Notes: generated by a model not told the origin, from the letters alone. A stretch of 64,000 nucleotides of DNA from a virus (IMGVR_UViG_3300028591_000180:1-64000), one strand, 5' to 3'; counted from the stretch's first letter, positions 576 through 43,895 are shown. Numbers and translations are program-made.

Positions 576-2558
576 ATGTTGATCGAACTTAACCTGAATA
601 AAGATTTTGAAAGAACTCTAAACACTCTTCGAGATAAGTATGGAGAAGACTTTGAATATTTCAGTGGAATCCATCCTTCACAGTTAGATTATTCAGAATT
701 CTTATCTAACTTTGTTAAGAATGATACCCTAGCTGATACTACAGTAGACCCTAATGCAAATGCTTCCCACCGAGATATTAGATCTTATATGACCGAAAAG
801 GGTAAAGCTTCAGACAAACTGTTTGGCCTGAATAAGATCTTCTTAGAGATTAAGAAGAAGTGGGGATTAAAGACTGCCCGTCAGTGGTTAGAACAGGAAT
901 ACTCAAAGGGATTTTATTTGAATGATTCTACTTCAGCTAGCTATATTCCCTATTGCTGGGCCAATGATTTAACTCGGCTATCAACAGAGGGATTATTCTT
1001 CTTACCCAATTATAATCACCAGCCGCCTAAGCATTTAACTACTTATTTTGATGATGTTATTGAATTTACTTCCTTTTTAAGTAATAGACAATCAGGAGCT
1101 GTTGGTTTACCTAATGTCATTATTTGGGCATATTATTTCTGGAAGCATGATTGTGAAAATGGGTATTATTTAAAAGACCCAGATACCTATCTTAGACAGA
1201 ATTTTCAGAAATTTATTTACCGGCTCAATCAGCCTTTTATGAGGATTGACCAGTGTGCTTTCACTAACGTAAGTATTTTTGATAGGCCTTATTTAACCGA
1301 ATTATTTGGTGGAGTAGAATTCCCTGATGGAAGTTTAGCCATTGAACAGATTGAAGAATTAATTCATGCTCAGAAAGTGTTCATGGAAGTAGTAGCTGAT
1401 ATTCGTAAAGAAAATATGTTTACGTTCCCAGTTCTTACTTATTCTTTATTATATAAAGATGGTAAATTCCAAGATGAAGAATTTGCACGTTGGGCTTCAA
1501 AACATAACATGCAATGGTCGGACAGCAATTTCTTTGTTAGTGACAATGTTGGAGTATTAAGTAATTGCTGCAGACTACTAAGTGATACCTCAAAGTTAGA
1601 TGCCTTCATCAACTCAATTGGTGGAACTGCTCTTAGTGTAGGATCATGCCGAGTAAGTACCATTAACTTTGTCAGGATTGCTTATGAATCCCTTGAACAT
1701 AATAAATTGGATAAATCCTCATTAAAAAAGGCTAAATCTAAATATATTAAAATCCTAAGAAACAGAGTAGATCTTGACTGTAAGGCTTTATTCTCAATGA
1801 GGCATATCCTTAAGAGGAATATTGAAAAAGGTCTTTTGCCTAATTATCAAGAAGGAGCTCTTGAATTAGATAAACAGTTCTGTACTATCGGTGGTATTGG
1901 GATGTATGAAGTAATGGATATGTTTGGACTCATTAAGACTGATGAGTTCGGAAATAAATCTTATTCAGATGAAGCCGTAGAATTTGCTTCTGAGATTCTA
2001 GATAACCTCAATGATGTAAAAGATCACTTCTTTGAAAAGTATAATATTCCAAAAGAAGAACAGTTCACATTCAACCATGAAGAAATCCCAGCAGAAAATG
2101 CAGCAGGAGTAATTTGCTCAGCCGATAATTTATTATATGAACAAGATAAATATTTTATCTATTCAAATCAGTGGATTCCGCTGATGGAAAAATGTACAAT
2201 TCAAGAAAAGTGTCGTCTGGGAAATCTTTTTGATAAGAAGTGTGGCGGTGGATGCATAGCTCATATTAATATTGAAGGAAGGTTCCCTAATGAAGAATCT
2301 GCCTGGGATATGTTAAATTATGTTGCCCAGCAAGGAGTTATTTACTTCGCATTTAATACTAAGATTAATGTCTGCGAGGATAAACATTCTTCTATCGGTA
2401 CTACCGTATGCCCAGTCTGTGGTAAACCAATAGTAGATCAGTATACTAGAGTGGTGGGTTTCTACACTCCTACTTCTGCTTACCAGAAAATCCGTAAGAG
2501 AGAATTCAACGCTAGAAAATGGTATGATGTAAATATAAAAGACTCATTACCGTTCTAA
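576..2558 (+). CDS. nrdD: anaerobic ribonucleoside-triphosphate reductase (class III RNR)
   Basis: C-terminal zinc site CEDKH..CPVCG and glycyl-radical motif YTRVVGF; start taken at ATG 576 after GAGG; all Trp are TGG. Confidence 0.96.
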   Translation: MLIELNLNKDFERTLNTLRDKYGEDFEYFSGIHPSQLDYSEFLSNFVKNDTLADTTVDPNANASHRDIRSYMTEKGKASDKLFGLNKIFLEIKKKWGLKTARQWLEQEYSKGFYLNDSTSASYIPYCWANDLTRLSTEGLFFLPNYNHQPPKHLTTYFDDVIEFTSFLSNRQSGAVGLPNVIIWAYYFWKHDCENGYYLKDPDTYLRQNFQKFIYRLNQPFMRIDQCAFTNVSIFDRPYLTELFGGVEFPDGSLAIEQIEELIHAQKVFMEVVADIRKENMFTFPVLTYSLLYKDGKFQDEEFARWASKHNMQWSDSNFFVSDNVGVLSNCCRLLSDTSKLDAFINSIGGTALSVGSCRVSTINFVRIAYESLEHNKLDKSSLKKAKSKYIKILRNRVDLDCKALFSMRHILKRNIEKGLLPNYQEGALELDKQFCTIGGIGMYEVMDMFGLIKTDEFGNKSYSDEAVEFASEILDNLNDVKDHFFEKYNIPKEEQFTFNHEEIPAENAAGVICSADNLLYEQDKYFIYSNQWIPLMEKCTIQEKCRLGNLFDKKCGGGCIAHINIEGRFPNEESAWDMLNYVAQQGVIYFAFNTKINVCEDKHSSIGTTVCPVCGKPIVDQYTRVVGFYTPTSAYQKIRKREFNARKWYDVNIKDSLPF

Positions 2559-2631: not shown

Positions 2632-5160
2632 ATGAAGCAAGTAAAAATAAAACCCTCTCAAAATATATATTTGTCAGTAGTTGGTACTACTAATACTCTT
2701 CAAATTGTATTCCCTATTGTAAAGGAGTGGAAGAAATATTATGGCGATGGAGAATTCTCTTTAGCTATCCGGAGACCAGTAGATAAGGAATCATACTTAG
2801 CCCCAATTACTACTGACAATGAAAATATCTATTGGACAGTAACTAGTACTGATACACAATATCCAGGTCCAGGTCAGTATCAGTTAATTTATTATGTTAA
2901 TGGAAATATTGCCAAGACAGTTATAGGTAATACTGTTGTTGATAAATCTTTAGGACAAACTAAATCAGCCCCAGCACCCTGGAGTGACTATATTAAACAA
3001 GTACTTGACGCCAAAGAAAGATATATTGCTACAGAACCTGGAAGTGGAATTATTCTAGATGATTCTTCTGACGGCTGAGTTTATATTAAGGTTGATGATA
3101 CTATAGCTACCAAAGATTATGTCGATGAATTTGGTGGTAAGATAGATTCTATTTCAGTTAATAATGTACTGCATGAACCTGATAGTAATAAAAATGTTAA
3201 TATTAATATTACTGTTAATGATGAGCTTGCTGAAGTAAAAGAAAGCTCAGAATTGGGTAAAGCCGTTAATGTTGATTTGGGCTATAATGTTATTGAAGAC
3301 TTTGAAGAAACAGAACTTGACCTACCGTCATTTACAGTTAATCTAATTGGTAATTATGATGGGTATATCTCAAATTCTGATCCAGATAAAGCTCAAGTAT
3401 GCTGTGAATTCTTTCCAGCAAGTTGACCAGATTTAAAAGAGAATTATCGGATATATCTTGAATTAGGCTTTGAAAAAAAGACTTACAATTTTAAAATAAG
3501 TGACATGGTGTCAGTTAAAAATGAGAGTGATTTTTATAATAGTGATTTCTATAATTATATAAAAGATTCTGTTTTCTCTGATGAATGAGAAGGTTTACCT
3601 TCAAAATTTTTTGATCGACAGGCCATCTATTACAAAGAGCTAGGCGGGTATAAGGATAATCCAATTTATTTTATATTAGGAATAGACGATATACATTTTG
3701 AAGATATTGAACATAGAGTTTGGTGCAGTTTATTTTATACTGAAAATACTGAAGATATTCCCCAGTTCGATGGTGAAGCCATAAATACCAATTATTATGA
3801 AGATTCAGATGGAAATTCTTGAGTCGGCGCTTGGTGGCCCAACCCTGAGAGCTATCTTGATTCCGGGATCTTAGCAGATAGAGAAGCTTTAATAAATTAT
3901 CTTCACTCAGAAGAAAATATTTATATTGATTATTTAGTCCCTACAATAACTGAGGTTGATCCTTCTCAGACTAGAGAAGTTATTATTACATCAGAAAAAT
4001 TTGAAAAAGCAGTAGAGTCACTTATTCCCCCAGTTGGTGATACTGTTGTAGAATTTAAGGTTGATATAACCGCAATACGTGGAGGAGGCGGCGATTGAAC
4101 TACTTTATCAAAAGAATGAGAGATTTATCAGTTATTAAAAGATGCTAAAGAAGCTAGGGCGGTATATAGCCATCCGTTAGATGAGGCATTAGGTGAACCC
4201 GTTGTCGATGATTATTTTAAAATAATATCACTAGAAAAAATTTCTCGCGATGGAAAAAAGACTCTTCCAGTGAATACTGAGGCCGGAATCTTTATTGCCT
4301 TTGAAACAAGGGAAACCGTTCTTATAACTACCTCAGATGGTTATGTCGAGTCTGAAGAAGTTCTTTATTTAAATTATGGAATAGCCTGAGAAAATGGATC
4401 CGGTCGGCTAACTTTTAACCGGTTAAAAATTTCAAATGATATTAATTATATTTACGTAAATGGTGTAAATCAACCAATATTATTTGATGCTTCTCATAAT
4501 AGATATGTAGATATAACAGTACCTACACAAGTATCTCAGTTAATTAATAATTCTGGGTATATTACTAGATCTGTAAATGATTTATTTAATTATTATAATA
4601 GCGCTAAGATTGATAAAGACATCGGACCACTTTATGGATATGGTTATTGTGTAGATCAGTCAACGGCTGATTATAAAGATATTAGAATTAATTTAAATGA
4701 TTTCCCTAATCAGGCAGGAAATTCTCAGTATCTTGAATTCTTATGCTGGTTTGAAAATGGCGCTCCTCGATTTAATCCAATCTCATACACTGAAGAAGAA
4801 TGGGAAAGGAAAGTTACATTTAATATAACATACCTTAATGGAAATTCTCTAGGAACGTGGCCACATGATGGTGTCTACTTAGCTGAATTATATAGGATGC
4901 TGCCTAATGGTAGTTTAAGCGATAATTACATTCAAGTAATGGGAATTCCTAAGGGATTATATAGATGTATACTTGACCCAAACCACCCAAAAATAATTAA
5001 GTTATATGATGTTAGTAGTTTATATAACCTTAGTCTAAATTCTATCTATATGGGCCTGGACCATGAATTTGTTCATGAACAGACTGTTTCTATAAATACA
5101 GAATTAGAATATGTAGAACCGTTCCCAGTGCCGCCTTCAGATGATCCAATTATAGAATAA
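2632..5160 (+). CDS. large tail/baseplate-associated structural protein (842 aa under TGA=Trp)
   Basis: Single frame with no TAA/TAG and 7 in-frame TGA (3076, 3424, 3586, 3820, 4096, 4117, 4387); BppU-like N-terminus; fibre-type motif VPTQVSQLINNSGYIT. Confidence 0.75.
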
Positions 5161-5180
5161 ATGTATAGAGGTGATAATTT

Positions 5181-6329
5181 ATGGCATATATAAAATTTTC
5201 AGTAGATCCAGATTGGATTCCACATTTTAAAAATTGGTTTAATACTCAAAATTACCCTAGTTTAAAGATTAACATTTATGAAAATCAATCTTCATCTGAA
5301 GAGGAGCCATCATATCAATTAATAGATAAATGTTTTACTACAAAAGGTCTAATCGTATATGATACTATAAATCAGATCCCCACAGGAAATATCAGCAGCT
5401 TGAGGGGTGCAGTAGTTGAAAATAAAGACAAAGCTTACGTTGGGTGGAAATTTAATTTGGCCTGAAATGAAATTGGTTTTCTTTTATATCCACTTAACCC
5501 GGTAGAGAGTTCTGAGGGATTAATCGATAGCCCTGATATTTATTTATGGCTTTTGGGTAATTCAAACGGTAAAACTGTCTTCGATAGTATAGATGATCTC
5601 CCGAATCCTCAGTATGATCCAATGATTGATCCACAAAACCTTAAAATAGAAATTGAATTTCCACATAATGAATACGATAAAGAGTTTTTTATAGCTGCTG
5701 ATAAATATCATAGAGATTATCATTATGACTTGGAATATGAAGTATTATTAGATAATTATTTTATTACAGTAGAAGAAAAAACCCGGCTTGCTACTCCTCA
5801 GCAAATAGAATTACCTATTTATAATGATGTAGTCTGAAGTGGGTATGGAAATTTCGCTTATGGAATCGAACCTAGATATCAAAAATATTTCATTATTATT
5901 AATAACTGGGCATTAAATTATCGACGGGCTATATCAGGAGAAAACCCCAGTAGGGCTATTGGAGAATTACAGTTTTCTCGTTTTCCTGATATAAATAGCT
6001 CTAAGGATTTAATGTTTAATTACATTAATTTAGGTGAAGATGGAGTTTTTCTTGATCCAATTACTAGTGATGCCGTTTATATATATCCATACTCTGCAGA
6101 TAGTGGAGATTGAGCCAGAGATTTATATTGTGTAGTTGATGAAAATGATTTTTCAACAGGAACATGTATTTGATCTGTGGATAATGGCACTAGTGAAACT
6201 ACATTACCAAGTTCAACTAATTTAAAGCCCGGTAATTATAGAATATCAGTTATTGGAGTTAATTACAATTCAGAAAGCTTACCTAATTTCTTAATATCTA
6301 GATATAACCCAGAAGATGGTGGGAAGTAG
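5181..6329 (+). CDS. hypothetical, probably structural, protein (382 aa under TGA=Trp)
   Basis: Joins track ORFs 5181 and 5553; in-frame TGA at 5463, 5835, 6111, 6171; ends at TAG 6327-6329 just before a terminator. Confidence 0.75.
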
Positions 6330-6579: not shown

Positions 6580-6858
6580 ATGAAAAATAGACAGTGGGAT
6601 AAGTTAACAACTGAGAGATGTAAGCAGTTCTGTAACGAATGGTGTTGCCCTTGTAATGATGGATCTACTGGTTGTTATGCTAATGACTTCTATGAAATGC
6701 TTTGTGATAATTCTACTCTCACTCATCTTCATAGCGGAGAAGAAGATTTATTTGATAGACTTGGGGATGAGGCTTATAATAAGATGGTTGAAAGTTACGA
6801 TGACCCAGAAATATATGAAAAGTTTTGTGAGAAGTTTGTGAAAGAGCTGGAGGTCTAG
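6580..6858 (+). CDS. hypothetical protein (Cys-rich N-terminus)
   Basis: 92-aa ORF with AAGGTGG RBS. Confidence 0.7.
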   Translation: MKNRQWDKLTTERCKQFCNEWCCPCNDGSTGCYANDFYEMLCDNSTLTHLHSGEEDLFDRLGDEAYNKMVESYDDPEIYEKFCEKFVKELEV

Positions 6859-6861
6859 AAT

Positions 6862-7257
6862 ATGAAAGAAATGGTTTATACTGATGAAGAGAAACGTGAA
6901 TGGCTTGACCACAGTGAATATAAAGGTTATGAATATGTAATTATGAGTTTAGGTACTCACCCTACTGCTTATGTTGGTATACCGTCAGCTGAAGCTAATG
7001 GTCTTTTCCAGGAAGAAGATCTAGAAGAATCTGATTCTATTAACGTTCATGGCGGTATTACTTATGAAAACAGCTACATTCGCGATGAAAATAAAAATGA
7101 ATACGGTAACAATAAGTGGTGGATCGGTTGGGATTATGCTCATCTCTATGACTATATGCCTGACAACGATTATGGGCAGTACCGAAAGAAATGGACAACA
7201 GAAGAAATTTTAGGAGATGTCAAGTCTGTTATAGATCAGATTATTGATAAGAAGTAG
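6862..7257 (+). CDS. conserved phage hypothetical protein (HGGITY / WWIGWDYAH family)
   Basis: Motifs HPTAYV, VHGGITY, WWIGWDYAH recur in phage proteins; GGAGG RBS. Confidence 0.75.
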   Translation: MKEMVYTDEEKREWLDHSEYKGYEYVIMSLGTHPTAYVGIPSAEANGLFQEEDLEESDSINVHGGITYENSYIRDENKNEYGNNKWWIGWDYAHLYDYMPDNDYGQYRKKWTTEEILGDVKSVIDQIIDKK

Positions 7258-7306
7258 TTTAAAACTACTTCTTTTTATTATATAATAATATTGTAAATAA
7301 AGGAGG
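7249..7306 (+). promoter_or_regulatory. terminator + early promoter cassette
   Basis: AAGAAGTAG-TTTAAAA-CTACTTCTT hairpin; TTTAAA(7258)-N17-TATAAT(7281)-AATATTGTAAATAAAGGAGG. Confidence 0.8.
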
Positions 7307-7313
7307 AAGAAAA

Positions 7314-7598
7314 ATGCCGATGTATGCCAATAAAGAATGGGATTATCTATTCGACGACCTTAGTAGTTTCTTGGAATCTCATGATCCGTCAGAATTATTG
7401 CACGTTGCTTCTGATGCTGTAAGTAGTTGGGAATATAAAAAAGACAAAGAATCCAAATTACCGAATGCTATTCCAATTGAGTGGCTGGAAAAGAAGATAG
7501 AGAAGTGCAAGTCATCTAAAGATTTATATCCACAATTATTTGAAGAAATAATGACAATTGTAATCACAGAGTGGAGGAAAGAAAATGAGACAAATTGA
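7314..7598 (+). CDS. cassette-array protein (AIPIEW...EWRKENE family)
   Basis: Ends in TGA overlapping the next gene; a TAA follows 3 codons later (7605-7607) if TGA is read through. Confidence 0.75.
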   Translation: MPMYANKEWDYLFDDLSSFLESHDPSELLHVASDAVSSWEYKKDKESKLPNAIPIEWLEKKIEKCKSSKDLYPQLFEEIMTIVITEWRKENETN

Positions 7599-7974
7599 TG
7601 CAGATAAACTTAAATCATTATTTAGTCCAGCCCTGACTGGCAAAACAACTTATTCTGCTGATGAAATCTTATTATCAATAGAAACAATGCCCGATAGTGA
7701 ACTAACTTCCCAACAGGTAATGGAGTATTGCAAAGCCCGTAATTACGCATTAGTTGATAATGAGTTCTTGCACATCATTCTTGGAGATAATCCTATGGAA
7801 TTATTCGGGTTACCAATAGAAGATGTAAAAAGAGTCATCAAGATATATAAGGTTAAAGGAGTTGTACCGACTACTGAATATACAGAAGGATTTGAAGATG
7901 GAGTGAATTATATGAAAGCCTATTATGAAAAGGTTATGGATGAATTAATAAAAAACGTTTATGAGGTAAGATAA
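7585..7974 (+). CDS. MRLIDAD-family small phage protein
   Basis: Starts MRQIDADKL; GGAGGAAAGAAAATG junction. Confidence 0.8.
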   Translation: MRQIDADKLKSLFSPALTGKTTYSADEILLSIETMPDSELTSQQVMEYCKARNYALVDNEFLHIILGDNPMELFGLPIEDVKRVIKIYKVKGVVPTTEYTEGFEDGVNYMKAYYEKVMDELIKNVYEVR

Positions 7975-8268
7975 ATGATATTGATCGATAGAGATAAATT
8001 ATATAATGATATCTGTAAGCCAAGTGATTTACCAGATGATTCAATAAATGTTTGTGATATTAGATTAGCCATCATTAATCAACCTGCAATAGAAGCTATC
8101 TCCATTAAAGATATTAAGGACTTTTTAAGGTGTGAAAAAATTGATAGTTGCGAATGGCGAAATTGTAGAGAGTGTTCTCAAATGAAATGTATTTCTATAC
8201 GAAATCTTAGTGATTTAATAGAGTGGTCTAAGGAGAAAGAAAATGGGATTAGATTTTACAATTTATAA
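7975..8268 (+). CDS. MRLIDAD-family small phage protein
   Basis: MILIDRDKL...PAIEAISI...EWSKEKENG. Confidence 0.8.
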   Translation: MILIDRDKLYNDICKPSDLPDDSINVCDIRLAIINQPAIEAISIKDIKDFLRCEKIDSCEWRNCRECSQMKCISIRNLSDLIEWSKEKENGIRFYNL

Positions 8269-8767
8269 GAAGAAGAAAAATGAAACTTGTCAAGAAGCTT
8301 GGGAGAATTTCAGAGAAAATGAAATTGAACTGGCCTATGGTCGAAAGAGCTGGGAATTAGTATATGCATTAGTTCCCAATTATAGAGATTATTATGAAAG
8401 TGAAGAGTATTTAGATGGCGTTTGTAATAATACAGATACCTGGGAAGATCCTATTGTCACAAAAGAAAGATGGGATTCTCTCATTAAAGATATGGAGCCT
8501 ATTGGAAATAAATTAGATGATATTTTTGATGCATTTAGCAGAGAAGAACATGCTCCTGTAGATTACCCTGAGTTTGTGTTTACTGATGAGCATAAGAAAT
8601 TAATTGCAGAATACGAGTATTGGTATAATAAGACATTTAATACCACTCCAACATTAGGTTATGATTTTTCAGTGGGGTATATGAAAGAATTTTGGGATGC
8701 AAATGATAAAGTTCAAGAAGTATTTGCAGATCCTGAATTAGAGGTAAGAGCAAGTGTCAGTTATTAA
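8243..8767 (+). CDS. hypothetical protein, paralog of 15074..15568
   Basis: Shares MGLDF, ELAYGRKSWELVY and PTLGYDFSV blocks with 15074. Confidence 0.8.
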   Translation: MGLDFTIYKKKKNETCQEAWENFRENEIELAYGRKSWELVYALVPNYRDYYESEEYLDGVCNNTDTWEDPIVTKERWDSLIKDMEPIGNKLDDIFDAFSREEHAPVDYPEFVFTDEHKKLIAEYEYWYNKTFNTTPTLGYDFSVGYMKEFWDANDKVQEVFADPELEVRASVSY

Positions 8768-8794
8768 AAACAATTATTATGAGGAGTGAGAATA

Positions 8795-9157
8795 ATGAGA
8801 CTGATTGATGCTGGTGAACTGATACAAGAGTTTGAAAAAATTAAAACCAATGGAAGTACTGAGTATCAAGAAGGAATTAATACTGGAATTAATAGGTGTA
8901 CTGTACTCGTTGCCAACACTCCAATAGTAGATGCCGTACTTCTTGAAGATTTCAGGTCGATGGAACGGACGGTTAACAAACTGACAAAAGCAATCGCAGA
9001 TGCCGAGCCGGTGAGACATGGGCATTGGATAGATGTAAATGGTGATGGCTCCTTGTGGAGATGTTCTATATGCGGAGAAACACAATGTTGTGATAGCAAT
9101 TACTGCGGAGATTGCAGGGCAAAGATGGACGAGGAGAAAGAGAATGAGACTGATTGA
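8795..9157 (+). CDS. MRLIDAD-family protein with C-terminal zinc ribbon
   Basis: MRLIDAGEL...HGHW...CSICG...CGDC; true start probably ATG 8795; ends in TGA. Confidence 0.8.
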   Translation: MRLIDAGELIQEFEKIKTNGSTEYQEGINTGINRCTVLVANTPIVDAVLLEDFRSMERTVNKLTKAIADAEPVRHGHWIDVNGDGSLWRCSICGETQCCDSNYCGDCRAKMDEEKENETD

Positions 9158-9497
9158 TGCTGAAAAGGTTAAGCAATACATACTAGAAGAAGGGTTCTAC
9201 TGTGATACTGAAGCAGACAAGGAGGCTACTGCAGGAGAAATAGATGAACTGTTTCCAACAGTAGATGCAATCTCGATTGAGTGGTTAAAGAAACATAAGT
9301 ATTTTAATATTATTGATTTGTGGGAAAAAGATTGTCAGCTGAAAAACACTAAAGATATTTTAGATAAATTATTATCAGAACATAATTTCAAATCTTATAG
9401 CGATTATGTTGAATACGCTGGGAAAATAACAGCTCTACCACGAGATGATAGACTTGATATTTTATTTAAGGAGAAAGAAAATGAAAGTAATATTTAG
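9144..9497 (+). CDS. MRLIDAD-family protein
   Basis: MRLIDAEK...PTVDAISIEW; start at ATG 9144 after GGAG. Confidence 0.8.
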   Translation: MRLIDAEKVKQYILEEGFYCDTEADKEATAGEIDELFPTVDAISIEWLKKHKYFNIIDLWEKDCQLKNTKDILDKLLSEHNFKSYSDYVEYAGKITALPRDDRLDILFKEKENESNI

Positions 9498-9684
9498 AAT
9501 AAAATCAGCTAATTTATCTAATAAGGAAGACTATGTGAGCATGGCTCATAATATCATAAGTTTATGGGATGATATGAAAGACCTCGATGCTATGGTAATA
9601 CCAGAAGATGTAGAAGTATATGTTGTAGATGGTGATAGTAAAGCAGAGGTGGTATTTGATAGCAATCAAGACGTCGTAGAATAA
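9481..9684 (+). CDS. hypothetical protein
   Basis: ATG 9481 within a GGAGAAAGAAAATG junction. Confidence 0.7.
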   Translation: MKVIFRIKSANLSNKEDYVSMAHNIISLWDDMKDLDAMVIPEDVEVYVVDGDSKAEVVFDSNQDVVE

Positions 9685-9721
9685 TTCATTAAAAGATATA
9701 GTATAATTATTTAGATCCACC

Positions 9722-9784
9722 AGAGGAATTGTAGTTTACAGATTCCTCTTTTTAATTATATAATAGTATTGTAAATAAAGGAGG
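9722..9784 (+). promoter_or_regulatory. terminator + early promoter cassette
   Basis: AGAGGAAT/ATTCCTCT hairpin whose loop holds TAGTTTACA; TTTACA(9735)-N18-TATAAT(9759)-AGTATTGTAAATAAAGGAGG. Confidence 0.8.
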
Positions 9785-9792
9785 TAAAGAAG

Positions 9793-10050
9793 ATGGAGAG
9801 CGAAACAGTAATTAAAGTAATTGATGCACTCATCGGAAGTATTAAGCCTTGCAACTCACCAGCAATTAATTGCGAAAGACTCGGTAGTCTTCAAGTCTTA
9901 TTAGAAGTGATGGATAACTACATTGCAGAAATTGAAAATGTTGTTAAATATCGAAATAGGTCTGAATATTATAAGCAACAAATGGGCGAGATGGCTTATG
10001 AATGGTTCGTTGACTTAAAGAGTCATGTTAATGAATTTATGGAAGAGTAA
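9793..10050 (+). CDS. hypothetical protein
   Basis: 85-aa ORF after promoter and GGAGG. Confidence 0.75.
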   Translation: MESETVIKVIDALIGSIKPCNSPAINCERLGSLQVLLEVMDNYIAEIENVVKYRNRSEYYKQQMGEMAYEWFVDLKSHVNEFMEE

Positions 10051-10063
10051 GGTGAGAAAGAAA

Positions 10064-10354
10064 ATGCCAACAATTAATACCAAAGATTTACCTGAATTTG
10101 AAACAGTAAGACTTATTGATTTAACTGAAGATAGTATTAATCATATAGCCGAAGCAATTGTCAGTAAATTAAATAAATCTGAGAGATATGGAAAGTGGAA
10201 ACCTATGGATTTAACTTGGGGTAGAAGTATCTATTATTGCACAAATTGTGGAGCCTCAGCAGAAGTACCAACAGAAATGGGAAAACCAATATATAGGTTC
10301 TGTCCTAACTGTGGAGTAAAGATGGATAAGGAGAAAGAAAATGAGACTAATTAA
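10064..10354 (+). CDS. zinc-ribbon protein of the cassette array
   Basis: GKWK...CTNCG...CPNCG..MD; ends KEKENETN. Confidence 0.75.
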   Translation: MPTINTKDLPEFETVRLIDLTEDSINHIAEAIVSKLNKSERYGKWKPMDLTWGRSIYYCTNCGASAEVPTEMGKPIYRFCPNCGVKMDKEKENETN

Positions 10355-10610
10355 TGCAGATGATTTTTTCAACGATTTTCCTGAACTGAGGGATTATGAA
10401 TACGCATCACAAGAATATGAGGTAGAAGCAATCCCTATTGAGCGGATAAAGAAGTGGGATACCGACAAAAATAAAGATTTCTATGATTGTTGCAAACTTC
10501 TTATTGATGACTTCAACAAAAACGATGTCAAAAGAATTTATTATAAGGACATGCCACCATATAATACAACTCAAGCTTTGTTAGAAGATTGGGAGAGAGA
10601 AAGATGTTAG
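10341..10610 (+). CDS. MRLIDAD-family protein
   Basis: MRLINADD...VEAIPIE. Confidence 0.8.
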   Translation: MRLINADDFFNDFPELRDYEYASQEYEVEAIPIERIKKWDTDKNKDFYDCCKLLIDDFNKNDVKRIYYKDMPPYNTTQALLEDWERERC

Positions 10611-10714
10611 ACTTGATCGCACAAGGAATAGTCATAGTTCTTGCATTAATATGGGCGGTAATTGCAGTAACAGGAATATTAGAAATATTAGATATGTGGG
10701 AGAAAAGAAAATGA
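10604..10714 (+). CDS. 36-aa single-pass membrane peptide
   Basis: MLDLIAQGIVIVLALIWAVIAVTGILEILDMWEKRK; ends in TGA overlapping the ATG of 10711 (ATGA coupling); not in the ORF track. Confidence 0.6.
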   Translation: MLDLIAQGIVIVLALIWAVIAVTGILEILDMWEKRK

Positions 10715-11040
10715 GATTGATTAATGCGGATAAATTGAGGAAAGATGTGCTTGACCTGCCGAATTGTTACAACGGGTTTAGCGATACTTATGACAAGGCA
10801 CTGATTTTAGACCTTGTTGATGAACAACAGACAGTAGATAGCAAGCCATACGTATCGTTTGAACAGTATGCTGAAGAACGTGATTTTGTCGAGGTAGTAC
10901 GATGCAAGGACTGCAAGTGGTGGAAGACAAATTATGTATGGGACGGGAATGAGCGTAAGATTTGTGCGAGAGAAGCATATGAACCATTTAGAAAAGCCGA
11001 AGATTTCTGTTCAAGAGGAGAAAGAAAATGCAGAGATTGA
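10711..11040 (+). CDS. MRLIDAD-family protein with CKDCKW...FCSRGE zinc motif
   Basis: MRLINADKL...VVRCKDCKWW...C...DFCSRGERK; ends in TGA. Confidence 0.8.
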   Translation: MRLINADKLRKDVLDLPNCYNGFSDTYDKALILDLVDEQQTVDSKPYVSFEQYAEERDFVEVVRCKDCKWWKTNYVWDGNERKICAREAYEPFRKAEDFCSRGERKCRD

Positions 11041-11288
11041 TTGACTTAGATAAAATGATGACAATTTATGATGAAGATAACAATGCTGTTATTTTTGGCA
11101 ACTTAGAAGCCGCAGAAGTTAAAGCAATCCCAGTTGAATGGCTGATGAAAAAAGCAGATGAGTATGCATCTATGGAAGTCACAAAAAATGGTGAACCATA
11201 TATGTTCACAATGCAAGAAGTAGCGGGGATGATAATTTTATTATCAAGGGAATGGAGAAAAGAAAATGAGGCCAAAGCTAAGCATTAA
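11028..11288 (+). CDS. MRLIDAD-family protein
   Basis: MQRLIDLDK...KAIPVEW...EWRKENE. Confidence 0.8.
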   Translation: MQRLIDLDKMMTIYDEDNNAVIFGNLEAAEVKAIPVEWLMKKADEYASMEVTKNGEPYMFTMQEVAGMIILLSREWRKENEAKAKH

Positions 11289-11496
11289 AGTAATTGATAG
11301 TGATACTGGTATCGAGCTAGATAAAGTAGATAAATTGATTGAACCAACAAAATTTAATTATGGGTTTATTGGTGATATGATGTATAGAACGTATAGATGG
11401 GATTTTGCGTATACAATAACAGATGATTACGCTTTACAATTAGAAGAAAAGATGGAAAAAGAAAAGATAGAGAGAGAAAATGAGACTGATTCTTAA
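11266..11496 (+). CDS. hypothetical protein (cassette array)
   Basis: Junction start; ends ERENETDS. Confidence 0.7.
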   Translation: MRPKLSIKVIDSDTGIELDKVDKLIEPTKFNYGFIGDMMYRTYRWDFAYTITDDYALQLEEKMEKEKIERENETDS

Positions 11497-11626
11497 ACTG
11501 ATTAAGAAAATCAAGCACAAAAGGTTCTGCAAGTTAAATGGGTATAAATGCCCAGACTGTATATATCATGAATGGAAATGGGAAGGTACAACATTTAGAG
11601 GAAATAGGTGTAGATATGGAAGTTAA
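11480..11626 (+). CDS. 48-aa Cys-containing peptide (MRLI start)
   Basis: MRLILKLIKKIKHKRFCKLNGYKCPDCIYHEW...; fills the gap between neighbours; not in the ORF track. Confidence 0.6.
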   Translation: MRLILKLIKKIKHKRFCKLNGYKCPDCIYHEWKWEGTTFRGNRCRYGS

Positions 11627-11981
11627 TGAATTACTAGAAAAAGGTTATAAAGAATATTCTCCAAATGCAGAATTTGAAGTAGGAGTTAATAGAGTATTTC
11701 AGAAGAGATTCGATGATGACTTTGGTAAAAGGTATTTTATTACTGTACGCACTTTTAAACCTTGGACACACCCATATACCCACGAAGAATTTACTTCAGA
11801 ACCAGAATTTGATATTCAGTTATATTCTAGTGATGGACATAAACCTTTAAACTTAAAGTTCTTCTCTGGCTGGTCTATCGATGAAGTAGAAAATTATGTA
11901 TTAAAGATCTTTAATTTACACGATTTAGAAGGAAAGCATGCCCGAATGTTTGATTGGTATGAAACTTGGGAGGAAAGATAA
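11616..11981 (+). CDS. hypothetical protein
   Basis: ATG 11616 after AGGTG; track ORF over-extended upstream. Confidence 0.7.
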   Translation: MEVNELLEKGYKEYSPNAEFEVGVNRVFQKRFDDDFGKRYFITVRTFKPWTHPYTHEEFTSEPEFDIQLYSSDGHKPLNLKFFSGWSIDEVENYVLKIFNLHDLEGKHARMFDWYETWEER

Positions 11982-12169
11982 TGAGATGCGATAAATGTGG
12001 AAGAAGATTTGAAGATGATTGGACACCTCAAGATAACTGGCCAAAATATGATATCGTTCAAAAATGTGGTGTTAATAGTCATATTAGTAAGATATATCTT
12101 TGTGATGAATGCAGCAAAAAATTAAGAGAATGGTTGGAGAAAGAAAATGAGACTAATAGATGCAGATAA
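11981..12169 (+). CDS. zinc-finger protein
   Basis: MRCDKCG...LCDECS; ends EWLEKENET. Confidence 0.75.
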   Translation: MRCDKCGRRFEDDWTPQDNWPKYDIVQKCGVNSHISKIYLCDECSKKLREWLEKENETNRCR

Positions 12170-12491
12170 GTTAATAACTGAAATTCTTACAATCGATTTA
12201 ATTGACGATGATAAGCCAATTGACAAAGGTATATTAAACGCACCAACAGTAGAAGCAATTCCAATTGATTATATGTTAACAAAAGCACAAGAGTGGCTTA
12301 TCGATCGTTCTATTACAGGAAGTGAAATGAAGTTTCTTAGAGATCTTATTAAAGAGTGGAAAGCAGATGAGACTAAGTATCTTGACTATAAAAATAGCCT
12401 GGATAATTGGGAGAATGAAAATGGTCCCATTAAGGAGCCATCAATCGTTCCTTATGAGATTCAAGAATTAGATCCCTTTAAGGAGAGATAA
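12147..12491 (+). CDS. MRLIDAD-family protein
   Basis: MRLIDADKL...APTVEAIPI. Confidence 0.8.
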   Translation: MRLIDADKLITEILTIDLIDDDKPIDKGILNAPTVEAIPIDYMLTKAQEWLIDRSITGSEMKFLRDLIKEWKADETKYLDYKNSLDNWENENGPIKEPSIVPYEIQELDPFKER

Positions 12492-12494
12492 GTA

Positions 12495-12719
12495 ATGGAT
12501 AATTATAGACAGTTCTCAAACATTGACTCACACTATTATACTAAATACGACCAGACAGATGCTAAAGACTACTCTGATTATGGCATTCCGCTTCATATTT
12601 CACAAAATGAACCCATAGTAATTACATCAGATGCTGTTTTCATTAAGCCTTTAAAGTTAGTTGTATTGACAGAAGATGTTTATAATAAACTGAAGGAGAA
12701 AGAAAATGAGACTAATTAA
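12495..12719 (+). CDS. hypothetical protein (cassette array)
   Basis: Ends KEKENETN. Confidence 0.7.
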   Translation: MDNYRQFSNIDSHYYTKYDQTDAKDYSDYGIPLHISQNEPIVITSDAVFIKPLKLVVLTEDVYNKLKEKENETN

Positions 12720-12936
12720 TGTTGATAATTTACATCTTAATTTATGGGTACCTTCAAAGAATAATGAGATTGTAAAAGCGTTTGAAAATAGTGTTATTGA
12801 TGCTTTAAATAGACAGCTGACAGTAGAAGCAATACCAATTGAGTGGATTAGGAATTGGGAAGAAAAAAACTGGGAGTTAGAGTGTAATTACGGTATTGAT
12901 GAAATGATTGAAGATTGGAGGGAAGAAAATGAATAG
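12706..12936 (+). CDS. MRLIDAD-family protein
   Basis: MRLINVD...TVEAIPIEW...DWREENE. Confidence 0.8.
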   Translation: MRLINVDNLHLNLWVPSKNNEIVKAFENSVIDALNRQLTVEAIPIEWIRNWEEKNWELECNYGIDEMIEDWREENE

Positions 12937-13435
12937 AATGTATTTTAGTAAAGAAGATGTTGAAGCCGGTTTAATGACTAAGCTTATCAATTATTTATGT
13001 CAGTACTCTTATCAGAGTGGCCCTAAAGATTTTGCCCATTATAATGATATTCATATTATGCCTGATGATTGTGAAGCTTTCGTAGTTGAATGGGAGCAGG
13101 CACCTTGGTCACATAACTATGGTGGGCACTTTGAATTTGTAGATGAAGATCAGGTGGTATGTAATGAGGTAGAGTTCCCGGATAAACATTTTGAATATAC
13201 TCCTGAAAATCCTAATGAAGCCATTAAAGAATGGCTTGCTGACAATCCAGGTTGGTACAAAGATGAGTGTGGACAATGGCAGTATAGCGATCAAATTGAT
13301 GACTTCCTTAAGGATATTTTTGGTCCGCAGTTTAGTCCACAGAAACCTGAAAACAAATTAAACCAATGGCTTGATGAAAATGATGATTGGCATGAAGATT
13401 CTGAAGGGAATTGGGTAAATAAAAATGAGGTATAA
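12929..13435 (+). CDS. acidic Trp-rich hypothetical protein
   Basis: ATG 12929 in a junction variant; internal repeat WLADNPGW / WLDENDDW. Confidence 0.75.
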   Translation: MNRMYFSKEDVEAGLMTKLINYLCQYSYQSGPKDFAHYNDIHIMPDDCEAFVVEWEQAPWSHNYGGHFEFVDEDQVVCNEVEFPDKHFEYTPENPNEAIKEWLADNPGWYKDECGQWQYSDQIDDFLKDIFGPQFSPQKPENKLNQWLDENDDWHEDSEGNWVNKNEV

Positions 13436-13437: not shown

Positions 13438-13731
13438 TTGAAGATGATTGATATTGTAACAGTAGGAAAGAAAGAGTATTATATTAAGAAGGCTTATCCT
13501 AATGGAGATCTGAAGCTTTCACCAGTTAACAGAATAGACGATTTAAGAAGTGAGCTAAAAGATTATACCAGTGAAGAATTAATGTGGGCAGCTGTACAAC
13601 AGGCGAAAGAAACGGGATCAGCTACTAAATTTAGAGAAGAGATCCCTGAAGATGAAGATAAATTCAAAGATGTAATTATTGGTAAGCCAATGAATTTTTT
13701 TACTGGGGAAGTTGAAGAAGATGATGATTAA
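13438..13731 (+). CDS. hypothetical protein
   Basis: 97-aa ORF after GAGG. Confidence 0.65.
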   Translation: MKMIDIVTVGKKEYYIKKAYPNGDLKLSPVNRIDDLRSELKDYTSEELMWAAVQQAKETGSATKFREEIPEDEDKFKDVIIGKPMNFFTGEVEEDDD

Positions 13732-14200
13732 GGGTTTAACTGATGAAGATTTCTTACAGTACAAAAAGCCAGCAATGTTTATTATTTCTCCTTATTGTAC
13801 TTTTAAATGTGACAAAGAGAATGGATCTCAGTACTGCCAAAACTGGTCATTATCCAAAGTAAAAATATCTAATGTCTCTAATGATCATATTATTAAAAGA
13901 TATTTGAATGATGATATAACAAAAGCTATTGTCTTTGGCGGCCTTGAACCAATGGATAGTTTTGAAGAAGTCTTTTCTTTTATTGATAGCTTACGAAATA
14001 AGTATGAATGCAATGATGATGTGGTTATCTATACCGGGTATACAGAGGAAGAAATAGCAGACAAGATTAACTATCTTAAAAATTTTAAAAATATCATAGT
14101 TAAGTTTGGGAGATATAGGCCTAACCAGCAACCGCATTACGATGAAGTACTGGGTGTTCCATTAGCCTCAGATAATCAGCATGCTGTGAAGATTAGTTAA
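13721..14200 (+). CDS. nrdG: anaerobic RNR activating enzyme (radical SAM)
   Basis: CTFKCDKE...CQN cysteine cluster, GGLEP, YTGY and KFGRY motifs of phage NrdG-like proteins. Confidence 0.85.
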   Translation: MMIKGLTDEDFLQYKKPAMFIISPYCTFKCDKENGSQYCQNWSLSKVKISNVSNDHIIKRYLNDDITKAIVFGGLEPMDSFEEVFSFIDSLRNKYECNDDVVIYTGYTEEEIADKINYLKNFKNIIVKFGRYRPNQQPHYDEVLGVPLASDNQHAVKIS

Positions 14201-14201
14201 G

Positions 14202-14250
14202 TTTACAGCTAAAGGCCTATCTTATATAATTATATTGTAAATAAAGGAGG
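14202..14250 (+). promoter_or_regulatory. early promoter
   Basis: TTTACA-N17-TATAAT-TATATTGTAAATAAAGGAGG. Confidence 0.8.
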
Positions 14251-14257
14251 CCCGTAT

Positions 14258-15073: not shown

Positions 15074-15568
15074 ATGGGATTAGATTTTAGTATTTATGCA
15101 AAGAACCATGAAGGTGAAGATCTTGAATTAGCCTATGGACGTAAGAGTTGGGAATTAGTTTATGAATTAGTTGGTGATGACTATGGCGGATACCTAGACG
15201 ACAGTAAAACAGAATGGCGATGGCCTCTGATTACAATTGAAGACTGGGATAGATTAATGGAAAAGCTTAATAAGATTGGCCCTAAGCTTGATGAGATCCA
15301 TGAGGCCTATCATGGGTTAAATATTTGGCCAGATAACTGGGTAGATGACAATGGAGATATGACTCCTAAAATGAGAGAGCTCTTCGGTAAATATTGTGAC
15401 CTTTGCTTTGAATATGAAATGTGGTATAATCAGAATTTCGACACTGCTCCTACATTGGGGTATGATTTCTCAGTCTTTTATATGAAAACCTTCTATGAAG
15501 CTGACAAAGAAGTTAGAAAATATCTAAATGACCCCAATTGGGAAGTATATGCTGTAGTAAGCTATTAG
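15074..15568 (+). CDS. hypothetical protein, paralog of 8243..8767
   Basis: Shared conserved blocks; GGAGG RBS. Confidence 0.8.
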   Translation: MGLDFSIYAKNHEGEDLELAYGRKSWELVYELVGDDYGGYLDDSKTEWRWPLITIEDWDRLMEKLNKIGPKLDEIHEAYHGLNIWPDNWVDDNGDMTPKMRELFGKYCDLCFEYEMWYNQNFDTAPTLGYDFSVFYMKTFYEADKEVRKYLNDPNWEVYAVVSY

Positions 15569-24677: not shown

Positions 24678-24704
24678 TAAAAGCTCGAAAGGGCTTTTAT
24701 TTTA
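24678..24704 (+). terminator. intrinsic terminator
   Basis: AAAAGCTC-GAAA-GGGCTTTT followed by T-tract. Confidence 0.75.
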
Positions 24705-24705
24705 G

Positions 24706-24754
24706 TTTAAATTATCTATCATATTTATTATAATAATAATGTAAATAAAGGAGG
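24706..24754 (+). promoter_or_regulatory. early promoter
   Basis: TAG-TTTAAA-N17-TATAAT-AATAATGTAAATAAAGGAGG. Confidence 0.8.
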
Positions 24755-24761
24755 CTCACTC

Positions 24762-29863: not shown

Positions 29864-30061
29864 ATGTCAAAAGATGAATTATTAGATTTTGGAATAGCGT
29901 TATTAATGACAGTCATTCATATTGGTTTATGTGTATTTGTTTGGTGGATTATTGCTAAGCTCTTACATGAAGATTTTCCACACCTCTTAACATCAGCTGG
30001 TCTTGGCCTGTGGGGATTCTCGGTATTCAGATCATATTGGAGAAAGGATAATAAGATTTAA
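29864..30061 (+). CDS. small 2-TM membrane protein
   Basis: 65 aa, hydrophobic. Confidence 0.7.
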   Translation: MSKDELLDFGIALLMTVIHIGLCVFVWWIIAKLLHEDFPHLLTSAGLGLWGFSVFRSYWRKDNKI

Positions 30062-31083
30062 TGGGGAATTTAGATAAAGCTTTAGCTGAGATCAATAAAA
30101 AGTTCGGCCGAAACTCAGTGATTGTTCTCGGAGATGAGGAACCTAACAAGGTAAACTGTATTTCTACCGGTTCATTACAGTTAGATAAGGCCTTGGGTGG
30201 TGGATTCGCCCGTGGTCGTATCTCTGAGGTGTTTGGTGTTGAAGGTGCTGGTAAAACAACTTTATGCTTACAGGTTGTTTCACAAGCTCAGCAGGAGGGC
30301 GACAACGTAGCGTATATAGATGTTGAACAGGCTGTTGATTTGAATTATGCTAAACATATTGGTGTTGATGTAGGACATTTAATTTTCTCCCAGCCATCAT
30401 CAGCTGAACAGGCATTAGATATTGTAGATGCATTAGTTAAATCAAATGAAATTGGTATGATTGTTATTGATTCAGTTGCATCACTTGCTCCACAAGCAGA
30501 ACTTGATGGTGAAATGGGAGATGCTACAATTGGATTAGCCGCAAGACTTATGGGTAAGGCCTTGAGAAAAATTACTGCTTCAGTTAATCAGACAAATTGT
30601 GCAGTCGTTTTCATCAATCAGTTAAGATCAAACATTGGTGGCTATGGCAATCCAGATACTACTCCAGGTGGTAGAGCTCTTAAGTATGCAGCTTCTCAAA
30701 GAATTGAAATGAGGAAGACAACAGCCATTAAAGAGGGATCTGATGTCGTTGGAAACCTGGTTAAAATTAAAATTGTAAAAAATAAAATAGCTCCTCCGAT
30801 GCAGGTTGTTGAATTGCCGTTGATTTTTGGTGAAGGGTTCAAGCCAGAAGAGGAAGTCATTGATCTCGCTATTGATTATGGTTTTGTTAACAAAGCAGGT
30901 GCATGGTTTACTACTCATGATGGCCAAAGACTTCAGGGGAAGGCTAATGTTAAAACCTATTATGAAGAACACCCTGAGTTATTAGAAGTACTTACCCAGA
31001 TGGTAAAGGATACACTAGCAGGAAGAGAAATTAAACAGGATTATGAAATTGATCCTAATACTGGAGAAGTTTTAAATATATAA
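30061..31083 (+). CDS. recA: RecA recombinase
   Basis: Walker A GVEGAGKTT, IVIDSVASL, FINQLR, TTPGGRALKYAAS, VKNKIAPP. Confidence 0.97.
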   Translation: MGNLDKALAEINKKFGRNSVIVLGDEEPNKVNCISTGSLQLDKALGGGFARGRISEVFGVEGAGKTTLCLQVVSQAQQEGDNVAYIDVEQAVDLNYAKHIGVDVGHLIFSQPSSAEQALDIVDALVKSNEIGMIVIDSVASLAPQAELDGEMGDATIGLAARLMGKALRKITASVNQTNCAVVFINQLRSNIGGYGNPDTTPGGRALKYAASQRIEMRKTTAIKEGSDVVGNLVKIKIVKNKIAPPMQVVELPLIFGEGFKPEEEVIDLAIDYGFVNKAGAWFTTHDGQRLQGKANVKTYYEEHPELLEVLTQMVKDTLAGREIKQDYEIDPNTGEVLNI

Positions 31084-43066: not shown

Positions 43067-43093
43067 ATTTTATAAAATTTATAATAAATAATT

Positions 43094-43153
43094 GGACTGT
43101 AGTTTACAGTCCTTTTATTTTTGACCTATAATAATAATGTAAATAAAGGAAGG
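43094..43153 (+). promoter_or_regulatory. terminator + early promoter cassette
   Basis: GGACTGT-AGTTT-ACAGTCC hairpin; TTTACA(43103)-N18-TATAAT(43127)-AATAATGTAAATAAAGGAAGG. Confidence 0.8.
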
Positions 43154-43161
43154 TACTGAAG

Positions 43162-43359: not shown

Positions 43360-43480
43360 GTAAAAGGAGCCCTCCGGTAATCTTAGGATTGACGGTGAAA
43401 GACGGAATATCTTCGGATATTGTTGAAAGTAAGGATGCGTCCAGAAATCATTAACGCGAAAGGCAACAAAATATATTAAA
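43360..43480 (+). ncRNA. candidate structured small RNA with its own promoter and terminator
   Basis: Promoter TTTACT(43324)-N18-TATAAT(43348); GC-richer segment with no ORF, hairpins CCGGTAATC-TTAG-GATTGACGG and AATATC-TTCG-GATATT; terminator at 43484-43515. Confidence 0.55.
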
Positions 43481-43483
43481 TTA

Positions 43484-43544
43484 AAAGAAAGTTAGTTTCG
43501 AAACTTTCTTTTTTATTATATAATAATAATGTAAATAAAGGAGG
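43484..43544 (+). promoter_or_regulatory. terminator + early promoter cassette
   Basis: AAAGAAAG/CTTTCTTT hairpin with TAGTTTCGA in the loop; TATAAT(43519)-AATAATGTAAATAAAGGAGG. Confidence 0.75.
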
Positions 43545-43552
43545 TAACTCAG

Positions 43553-43763: not shown

Positions 43764-43895
43764 ATGAAAAAATCAAAGGTTCGAGATCTGTGGATACCAC
43801 AATCCTGGCGTTATAATGGCAGCGGGTTTCATAAGAATAAAAAGAAAATAATTTTTAGAAAAAGAAAATACAAGGAGAAAGAAAATGAAAATTAG
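43764..43895 (+). CDS. 43-aa highly basic peptide
   Basis: MKKSKVRDLWIPQSWRYNGSGFHKNKKKIIFRKRKYKEKENEN; not in the ORF track. Confidence 0.55.
   Translation: MKKSKVRDLWIPQSWRYNGSGFHKNKKKIIFRKRKYKEKENEN

Follow-up and report, generated by a model that had tools for sequence, protein, structure and literature searches.

Introduction

In T4-type phages, small non-essential early open reading frames (ORFs) are located in hyperplastic regions, including regions near nrdD, and are flanked there by repeated regulatory sequences termed promoter-early stem-loops (PeSLs) (PMC2839356; PMC4122927). PeSLs are points of homologous exchange, at which genes are inserted, deleted, or replaced together with their own expression signals (Arbiol et al., 2010, PMC2839356; Comeau et al., 2014, PMC4122927), and this exchange yields more viable recombinants than random illegitimate recombination (PMC2839356; PMC4122927). 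A PeSL occupies approximately 100 bp between genes and comprises, besides a sigma-70 promoter, a terminator in the form of a stem-loop, a Shine-Dalgarno (SD) sequence, and the ATG; mini-circles were also shown (PMC2839356; PMC4122927). Here, we describe an array of small genes at positions 7314-13435 of the virus record IMGVR_UViG_3300028591_000180, in which neighboring genes are chained by a conserved 14-nt sequence, herein referred to as the junction. The window analyzed is the first 64 kb (positions 1-64000) of this linear record of 74.5 kb, for which a completeness of 49% is estimated.

Three other types of described systems are relevant for this locus. Integrons consist of the integrase IntI, the attI site, and attC-bounded cassettes, and an IntI-type recombinase is absent by definition in clusters of attC sites lacking integron integrases (CALINs). 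For lambdoid and dairy phages, short conserved boundary ("linker") sequences were proposed as preferred crossovers that make mosaics, within the modular theory of Susskind and Botstein; boundary sequences are reportedly described as crossover points for HK620 by Clark et al. in 2001. In the host-takeover module of SPO1 and the early ORF clusters of T4, small early genes are arranged in tandem and carry translation signals that are strong and uniform; their functions are unknown or host-directed.

The array contains 21 ORFs, each with a ribosome-binding site (RBS), numbered here g01-g21; an initial annotation, made from the sequence alone, had counted approximately 20 small chained genes. About half of the 21 genes belong to one family of approximately 80 residues, with an internal conserved segment referred to below as the AIPIEW block. 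Judging from its sequence and from comparison with relatives, this locus is probably a recombination-built, hyperplastic gene-cassette array, in which exchange takes place at the junction and at the AIPIEW block.

Conserved Junction Between Neighboring Genes

The exact sequence GGAGAAAGAAAATG occurs seven times in the window, always on the plus strand, and all seven positions given by the initial annotation were recovered (8232, 9470, 10330, 11017, 12136, 12695, and 43874). In dinucleotide shuffles of the sequence the mean number of copies was 0.01, and none of 100 shuffles reached seven. Six of the seven copies are located at start codons in the array. The copies are listed below, except for the one at 10330, which belongs to g09; here and in the other lists, (+) denotes the plus strand.

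8232..8245 (+), junction g03/g04, exact 14-mer
9470..9483 (+), junction g06/g07, exact 14-mer; homology to the closest relative, L097, resumes at its first base
11017..11030 (+), junction g12/g13, exact 14-mer; left edge of a block shared with L097
12136..12149 (+), junction g17/g18, exact 14-mer
12695..12708 (+), junction g19/g20, exact 14-mer
43874..43887 (+), seventh exact 14-mer; joins the tiny ORFs 43764-43895 (tail KEKENEN) and 43885-43986, behind an early promoter cassette

Most of the array gene starts that have no exact copy carry a variant of the 14-mer, either with 1-2 mismatches (7574, 9133, 10053, and 11469) or as a one-base-indel or GGAGG version (10699, 11254, and 12917). These variants, noted before, are real, with some of the earlier coordinates 1-2 bases off (e.g., for 7574, 10053, and 11469). 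A crude gene call over the entire record gave 130 genes, 21 in the array and 109 elsewhere, and their start codons were compared. The exact 14-mer was found at 6 of the 21 array starts and at none of the 109 others (Fisher p = 9e-6), and a sequence within three mismatches of it was found at 14/21 and 1/109 starts, respectively (Fisher p = 7.5e-13), so that it is commoner here than at the other RBSs. An interpretation of the 14-mer as the general RBS of this phage was rejected, as elsewhere the RBS is AGGAGG-like with heterogeneous spacers.

The reading frames confirm the earlier proposal that the 14-mer has three roles at once: it encodes the tail of the upstream gene (..EKEN), contains GGAG followed by a 7-nt spacer, and provides the ATG of the next gene, always at its 3' end. 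The family tail codons TGG GAG AAA GAA AAT form the SD sequence GGAG, an A-rich spacer, and the A-ATG of the next gene. That gene begins with ATG AGA CTN ATT GAT/AAT (MRLID/N), which the upstream frame reads as N-E-T-N/D, and the upstream stop TGA/TAA is formed inside the ATT-GAT or ATT-AAT codons. Since the upstream frame reads through the next start, the KEKENETN tail is an overprint of the RBS and start of the next gene. The conservation lies in the DNA, as is evident from the g12/g13 junction, where the upstream gene uses a different frame of this sequence (..GERKCRD).

Codon usage was tallied for 31 C-terminal xEKEN tails from six arrays, with the array genes as background:

First Glu of xEKEN: GAG in 29/31 (background 24%)
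Lys of xEKEN: AAA in 31/31 (background 63%)
Second Glu of xEKEN: GAA in 30/31 (background 76%)
Asn of xEKEN: AAT in 31/31 (background 79%)
Codon before xEKEN: G-final in 30/31

Thus, the synonymous positions of the junction are frozen, and the AIPIEW block varies freely at wobble positions. These frozen codons, together with the out-of-frame junction of g12, led us to reject conservation of the KEKENETN tail as a peptide only. Four junctions with 30-nt flanks folded no better than shuffles (z from +0.1 to +1.1); the core is all-purine, and no attC-like fold was found. A search for an exact 21-mer in 185,579 species genomes produced a single stray match, in a metagenome-assembled genome of Sulfurovum, with no sign of prophage arrays there.

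Breakpoints Against the Closest Relative

The array is located between two genes for anaerobic ribonucleotide reduction, and the second of them is followed by genes for two topoisomerase II subunits:

nrdD, 576..2558 (+), large subunit of anaerobic ribonucleotide reductase (phrog_25611, E = 4e-155); left core-gene flank of the plastic region
nrdG, 13721..14200 (+), activase (phrog_626); right core-gene flank and anchor for finding relatives

With nrdG as the anchor, 63 loci from metagenomes and 23 from viruses were collected. The closest relative, L097, is a contig of 3979 bp with an nrdG 82% identical at the amino acid (aa) level and with five exact 14-mers. The array genes involved in the comparison with L097 are as follows:

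g06, 9144..9497 (+), 117 aa, chimeric family gene with the crossover in its AISIEW block (9267-9284)
g07, 9481..9684 (+), 67 aa, non-family cassette (MKVIF...), 82% aa identity to L097 and 43% to L013
g08, 9793-10050 (+), first gene of a four-gene block without L097 counterpart
g09, 10064-10354 (+), zinc ribbon, with the exact 14-mer at 10330
g10, 10341-10610 (+), family gene
g11, 10604-10714 (+), 36-aa membrane peptide
g12, 10711..11040 (+), 109 aa, MRLINAD N-module followed by an unrelated CKDCKW module, tail GERKCRD
g13, 11028..11288 (+), 86 aa, full family member (MQRLIDLD, AIPVEW at 11124, EWRKENE), 98% aa identity to L097
g16, 11616..11981 (+), 121 aa, non-family gene, beside the g15 homologue in L013
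g20, 12706..12936 (+), 76 aa, full family member, three-helix model
g21, 12929..13435 (+), 168 aa, non-family last cassette, 97% aa identity to L097

The DNA shared by the window and L097 is 87-100% identical and is broken by five events. In the first one, the C-terminal module of g06 is replaced, with edges at 9271, in the codons for P-T-V-D-A-I, and at 9470, the first base of the 14-mer; the N-half of this gene, up to 9271, has 91% DNA identity to L097. The second event is the presence of g08-g11 in the window only, with edges at the ATG 9793-9795 and at the junction 10699. The third one replaces the C-terminal module of g12 and is accompanied by an extra gene in L097. Its edges are located at 10838, in the Q/P-T-V-D/E codons, and at 11013, just 5' of the 14-mer, and the N-module of g12 has 90% DNA identity to L097 up to 10838 (QTVD block). 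In the fourth and fifth events, g16 (edges 11630 and 11967) and g20 (edges ~12709 and 12927) are replaced in L097 by unrelated genes of 103 and 69 aa, respectively.

Of the 11 breakpoints, nine are no more than 15 nt away from a start codon, i.e., at RBS-ATG junctions, and the other two are inside the PTVxAIP block. These target zones make up ~16% of the compared stretch, and under a null of random placement all 11 breakpoints would fall there with a probability of ~1e-9, which is a rough bound. This distribution supports the earlier proposal of a recombination-built array with two crossover blocks, at which sequences would be swapped, gained, or lost in frame and with translational coupling preserved.

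Arrays in Other Phages

Among the nrdG-anchored loci, an array with seven exact 14-mers was found in L013, a contig of 139.9 kb with an nrdG of 49% aa identity, which is also present as L036, L078, and L098. Further arrays and tandem pairs were found with g18 and the junction DNA as queries. Six exact copies were found in L003, four in L031, and three in L034. Additionally, L103 has four tandem family genes with the 14-mer repeated, and L104 has two tandem family genes with the 14-mer once between them. L078 and L027/L031/L033 are 100% identical copies of counted arrays and added no breakpoints. The array-bearing contigs have a GC content of 30-45%; counted together, at least seven groups of phage contigs have arrays delimited by the junction. 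L003 represents an unrelated phage type, with a helicase, an Erf-like annealing protein, a RecE-like exonuclease, and a methyltransferase. Searches of GenBank phages by megablast and tblastn gave nothing.

Three further genes of the window array were compared with L013:

g02, 7585..7974 (+), 129 aa, MRQIDAD N-module (~36 aa) fused to a second module
g14, 11266-11496 (+), non-family cassette
g15, 11480-11626 (+), non-family cassette

The cassettes of the window and L013 are 74-86% identical at the protein level, though nrdG is only 49% identical. The order of the cassettes differs in L013, where g15, g16, a new gene, and g14 are followed by the C-module of g02; array order and content are thus not fixed across the relatives, as both L097 and L013 demonstrate. 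The g14 block 11254-11465 matches L013 5615-5828, with a junction on both sides, and g14 of the window is nearer to the L013 copy (79%) than to the L097 copy (60%). The second module of g02 is a stand-alone gene in L013 (5828-6109, 78% aa identity), with an exact 14-mer before it. The C-half of g06 (9276-9491), missing from L097, was found in L003 at 82% identity, starting at the AIPIEW block of the L003 gene. L034 and L013 have a common C-half, 91.5% identical from the block on, connected to unrelated N-halves. In sum, cassettes in a different order, together with three additional swaps of half-genes at the block, come from L013, L003, and L034.

Some features of these relatives lie at or outside the array borders. 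The L003 array (~7366-11050) is located between the ORFs 6589-7365 and 11701-12450, which are two parts of one primase family, phrog_1829, matching profile positions 7-185 (N-terminal) and 535-757 (C-terminal); this array appears to split, or sit inside, a primase gene. In the window, a Cys-rich 92-aa gene (6580-6858, with a GGTGG-type RBS) just upstream of the array is 86% identical to L013:3557-3835. The latter gene is inside the L013 array and has a junction-type RBS, and its similarity is far above the 49% of nrdG. The C-terminal part of the window nrdD (2151-2530) has 79% DNA identity to a separate 152-aa ORF, L013:650-1029, and nrdD may be split or fragmentary in L013.

Exchange Between Cassettes and Alternative Explanations

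In the probable recombination-built array, each cassette would end by supplying the translation start of its neighbor, and neighbors are separated by a 14-36-nt direct repeat conserved to the nucleotide. Recombination between such repeats, guided by homology or microhomology, would delete, duplicate, replace, or reorder whole cassettes, whether it takes place inside one genome, in a pair of sister genomes, or among phages that co-infect a cell. The less strictly conserved AIPIEW block would permit in-frame half-gene swaps. As the products would retain frame, RBS, start, and stop, viable recombinants would arise at a high rate, and unrelated genes could be captured between junctions. The recombination enzymes may be Erf/RecE in L003 and RecA in the window phage:

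Phage RecA, 30061..31083 (+), PF00154 (E = 3e-104); candidate recombinase, context only

Recent tandem duplication was rejected as the origin of the array. Identity among the within-array paralogues is no higher than 25-45%, and no internal direct repeat is longer than the junctions, with at most 29 nt exact; thus, the array was assembled from diverged cassettes.

Several observations weigh against this explanation. Most of the nrdG-anchored loci have no array within 10 kb upstream of nrdG, with L013 and L097 as exceptions. Selection for intact genes alone also puts breakpoints at gene boundaries, which weakens the 9/11 boundary breakpoints as evidence for homology guidance; under a null of intact-gene survivors only, the result is far less extreme for these nine edges. 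At the g08-g11 indel, a promoter-proximal AGGAGG RBS is joined to a junction with only ~5-8 nt in common, i.e., microhomology at best. Stretches of exact identity measure 14-29 nt for junctions and mostly 5-11 nt for the AIPIEW block, lengths that do not exceed the minimum usually needed for efficient RecA-type exchange. The only close relative compared was L097, a 4-kb contig. Finally, neither recombination intermediates nor population variants were seen, so that we infer the mechanism of exchange from its end products only. The short homologies and the nearly homology-free indel edge leave room for microhomology events plus selection.

In the likeliest alternative, the junction is a translation signal only: a dual-coding re-initiation site inherited with the family C-terminus would be a passive boundary in an array shaped by illegitimate recombination and selection for intact genes (Hendrix-type model). 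The frozen synonymous sites fit a constraint on SD and ATG, the lack of structure in the junction is what a translation start should show, nine of the 11 breakpoints are simply gene boundaries, and the edges of the g08-g11 indel have little homology. However, all intragenic breakpoints seen are on one conserved block (g06 and g12 against L097, g06 against L003, and L034 against L013), and selection for whole genes does not dictate intragenic positions. Moreover, the spacer AAAGAAA is invariant well beyond the needs of an SD spacer, and in several cases the homology of relatives begins or ends at the first base of the 14-mer. We consider this explanation unlikely.

The invariant spacer, exceeding SD needs, could also be a trace of selection on RNA. 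T4 RegB cleaves GGAG in early SD sites, and GGAG with the A-rich spacer could be kept as the target of an mRNA-processing or shut-off factor, with recombination as a side effect; the location of the genes behind early-type promoters fits such a role. This explanation, however, leaves the breakpoints unexplained, and no RegB homologue was matched in the 74.5-kb record, in a search that is uninformative, as its controls were silent too; we regard it as very improbable.

It is hardly credible that the junction, alone or with the MRLID codons, is targeted by a specialized recombinase or nuclease of the phage or host, as in a true integron analogue: the site is nucleotide-exact across phages of different type and GC content, and the enzyme could lie in the other half of the genome, as the record covers 49% of it, but no tyrosine or serine recombinase was found in the 74.5 kb, the site has no inverted repeat or fold, crossovers occur also at a second, protein-level block with wobble variation, and no obvious enzyme is common to the array phages (RecA here, Erf/RecE in L003).

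Recombination at the junction and the AIPIEW block stays our preferred explanation. A wider proposal is put forward only tentatively: the WEKEN/GGAG-N7-ATG junction could be a portable cassette boundary that has spread over gut and rumen phages of unrelated types and does the work of an integron without an integrase. At this boundary and at the AIPIEW block, general phage recombinases would assemble small early proteins into combinatorial libraries, in which three anchors are fixed, inserts vary, and foreign genes are captured, as a fast-evolving host-takeover or anti-defence repertoire.

Small-Protein Family

Alignment of the MRLIDAD genes of the window with those of related arrays gave a collinear pattern for the family: M-R-L-I-D-A-D-K-L, 25-40 variable residues, P-T-V-x-A-I-P-I-E-W, 25-35 variable residues, and a C-terminal block. 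This third conserved block, an amphipathic stretch to an invariant Trp followed by E/R-K-E-N, is the junction itself. MRLIDAD-like starts were found in nine genes (g02, g03, g05, g06, g10, g12, g13, g18, and g20) and AIPIEW-like blocks at seven positions (7467, 8095, 9267, 10428, 11124, 12255, and 12829), the same numbers as in the initial annotation. The modules are not shuffled, as had been stated there, as the blocks are collinear in one family, with variable inserts and C-terminal fusions; zinc ribbons and CKDCKW, formerly placed between the two blocks, in fact follow the second one. All three blocks are present in order in g03, g06, g10, g13, g18, and g20. Partial family genes are g01, which has no N-block, and g02, g05, and g12, which have only the N-module, fused to other modules. 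The family genes not listed above are the following:

g01, 7314..7598 (+), 94 aa, half-family gene with a foreign N-terminus, AIPIEW block at 7467-7484, WRKENETN tail
g03, 7975..8268 (+), 97 aa, divergent family member (MILIDRD, AISIKD, tail EWSKEKEN...)
g05, 8795..9157 (+), 120 aa, MRLIDAG N-module, AEPVRHGHW, zinc ribbon, tail EEKENETD (phrog_22543, E = 3e-5)
g18, 12147..12491 (+), 114 aa, family member with a C-terminal extension

Residues 52-92 of g01 are 43% identical to g13, from the AIPIEW block on. The extension of g18 contains two decayed junctions (12359-12379 and 12410-12423), and by its sequence g18 looks like an old read-through fusion. A homologue of g18, P0001, is 96% identical and is located on a 39.8-kb contig.

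A profile of 18 members matched 2289 representatives of clusters at 50% identity with E <= 1e-3 and 195 with E <= 1e-10. The representatives are mostly 75-100 aa long and cover the profile across all three blocks. One match, P0012 (1842 aa, Cys-rich), looks like a false positive. Of the 111 representatives with W-x-K-E-N, 109 have E, G, D, A, or V as the following residue; the codons for these residues are G-initial (background 35%), as demanded by the embedded A-ATG, so that the junction is a family-wide trait. On this evidence, a family gene is predicted to end by carrying the start site of its downstream neighbor.

The AlphaFold2 model of g20, based on 128 sequences, contains three helices (21-36, 45-55, and 64-75) with a mean predicted local distance difference test (pLDDT) score of 85.9, and the family is thus modeled as small three-helix proteins. 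No match in Pfam, PHROG, or NCBIfam at the curated cut-off was found. The profile search of PDB and the Foldseek search were empty, and the best VIA-align Z was 3.5. Neighbors in the ESM Atlas are viral hypothetical proteins, and the motif words of the family (MRLIDAD/AIPIEW type) were not found in the literature searched. In total, this is a large family of ~2300 clusters at 50% identity, for which no Pfam, PHROG, NCBIfam, structural, or literature annotation was found.

Putative Early Promoter Cassettes

Six composite elements were found in the window, each consisting of a hairpin with -35-like GTTTACA/GTTTAAA in the loop, TATAAT, the invariant TGTAAATAAAGGAGG, N7, and ATG (element positions, as listed, in parentheses):

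7242..7313 (+) (7292), PeSL-like cassette 1: hairpin, TATAAT, TGTAAATAAAGGAGG, N7, ATG of g01; inverted repeat found
9720..9792 (+) (9770), PeSL-like cassette 2: TTTACA-18-TATAAT, TGTAAATAAAGGAGG at 9770-9784
14190-14257 (14236), composite element
24690-24761 (24740), composite element
43090-43161 (43138), composite element
43480-43552 (43530), composite element

The array has two promoter-like cassettes and no others, at 7242-7313 and 9720-9792; between them, the genes overlap. From their sequences, cassettes 1 and 2 are predicted to head the transcription units of the array; its genes are probably expressed early from these PeSL-like promoters and are probably translationally coupled.

Other Cassettes and Genomic Context

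The remaining genes of the array are non-family cassettes or a zinc ribbon:

g04, 8243..8767 (+), 174 aa, non-family cassette (MGLDFTIY...)
g17, 11981..12169 (+), 62 aa, zinc-ribbon cassette, tail EKENETNRCR
g19, 12495..12719 (+), 74 aa, non-family cassette, tail KEKENETN

A paralogue of g04 (MGLDFSIY...) is located at 15074-15568, 6.8 kb downstream and outside the array. A single L013 homologue matches both g04 (62% aa identity) and this paralogue (44%), and a search of viral contigs with g04 gave nothing.

The record belongs to a large sheep-gut phage of ~150 kb with RecA and topoisomerase II, whose hosts are probably Gram-positive gut bacteria. Every gene of the record is on the plus strand, and the GC content is ~33%. 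Overlaps, by 1-26 nt, were found for 15/20 pairs of array neighbors, vs. 15/109 elsewhere. TGA stops are present in four array genes. If TGA were read as Trp, g11 would be longer by 32 residues and the other three by 3-5, and with so few, mostly small extensions the standard genetic code is adequate for the array. Few convincing ORFs or RBSs were called by the crude gene caller in the stretch 2632-6329, between nrdD and the array. In the late region, the genes at 57483-57707 and 58635-59033 both start with MGLKLY and are probably paralogues.

Comparison With Known Systems

The array is a concrete, sequence-defined case of fast turnover of accessory genes and half-genes without loss of expression. 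As the proposed crossover site is also the translation-coupling signal, every recombinant would be in frame and translated. Tandem early-region arrays in at least seven contig groups form a tractable set for host-takeover and anti-defence screens, and the locus bears on a long-standing question, the homology-guided or illegitimate origin of phage mosaicism. This kind of array is undescribed but not unprecedented, as recombination at repeated regulatory boundaries is a known principle.

The dense operon of small genes with uniform translation signals resembles the SPO1 and T4 clusters. These clusters are not known to rest on a single recurring dual-coding junction, nor, to our knowledge, has the swapping of cassettes at a site of this type been described in them. 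Unlike the sporadic, intergenic linkers of lambdoid and dairy phages, the junction is nucleotide-exact, present in up to seven copies per array, dual-coding, and tied to one family, and it is found in unrelated phage types.

With integrons and CALINs the array has in common ordered small cassettes, putatively promoterless and read from an upstream promoter, a repeated bounding site, and rapid gain, loss, and reordering of genes. The initial annotation had described it as integron-like with no integrase. The second part holds for the 74.5-kb record (~49% of the genome), where PF00589 and PF00239 had no match while the controls were positive; the first is an analogy only. In contrast to attC, the site is not a folded imperfect palindrome; it is coding, doubles as RBS and start codon, and takes part in exchanges that look homology-driven.

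By analogy, PeSL shuffling is the closest known counterpart. In both cases the edges of indels and replacements fall in a repeated element (11/11 against L097), a likeness that concerns mechanism, not membership: in a test of PeSL composition, the 14-mer junction fails, and the six composite elements of the window pass. These six elements agree with the published description of PeSLs and occur here in a probable Gram-positive gut phage, in contrast to the Gram-negative hosts of T4-type phages. The junction differs from PeSLs in its length of 14-36 nt, in its location inside overlapping coding sequence, in having no promoter or hairpin, and in its connection to one protein family. The array cassettes are probably promoterless and translationally chained, and a second, intragenic block permits half-gene swaps. 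The PeSL idea, which was developed for promoter cassettes in T4-like phages of Gram-negative hosts, is thereby extended to other phage types and to a coding junction of far smaller size.

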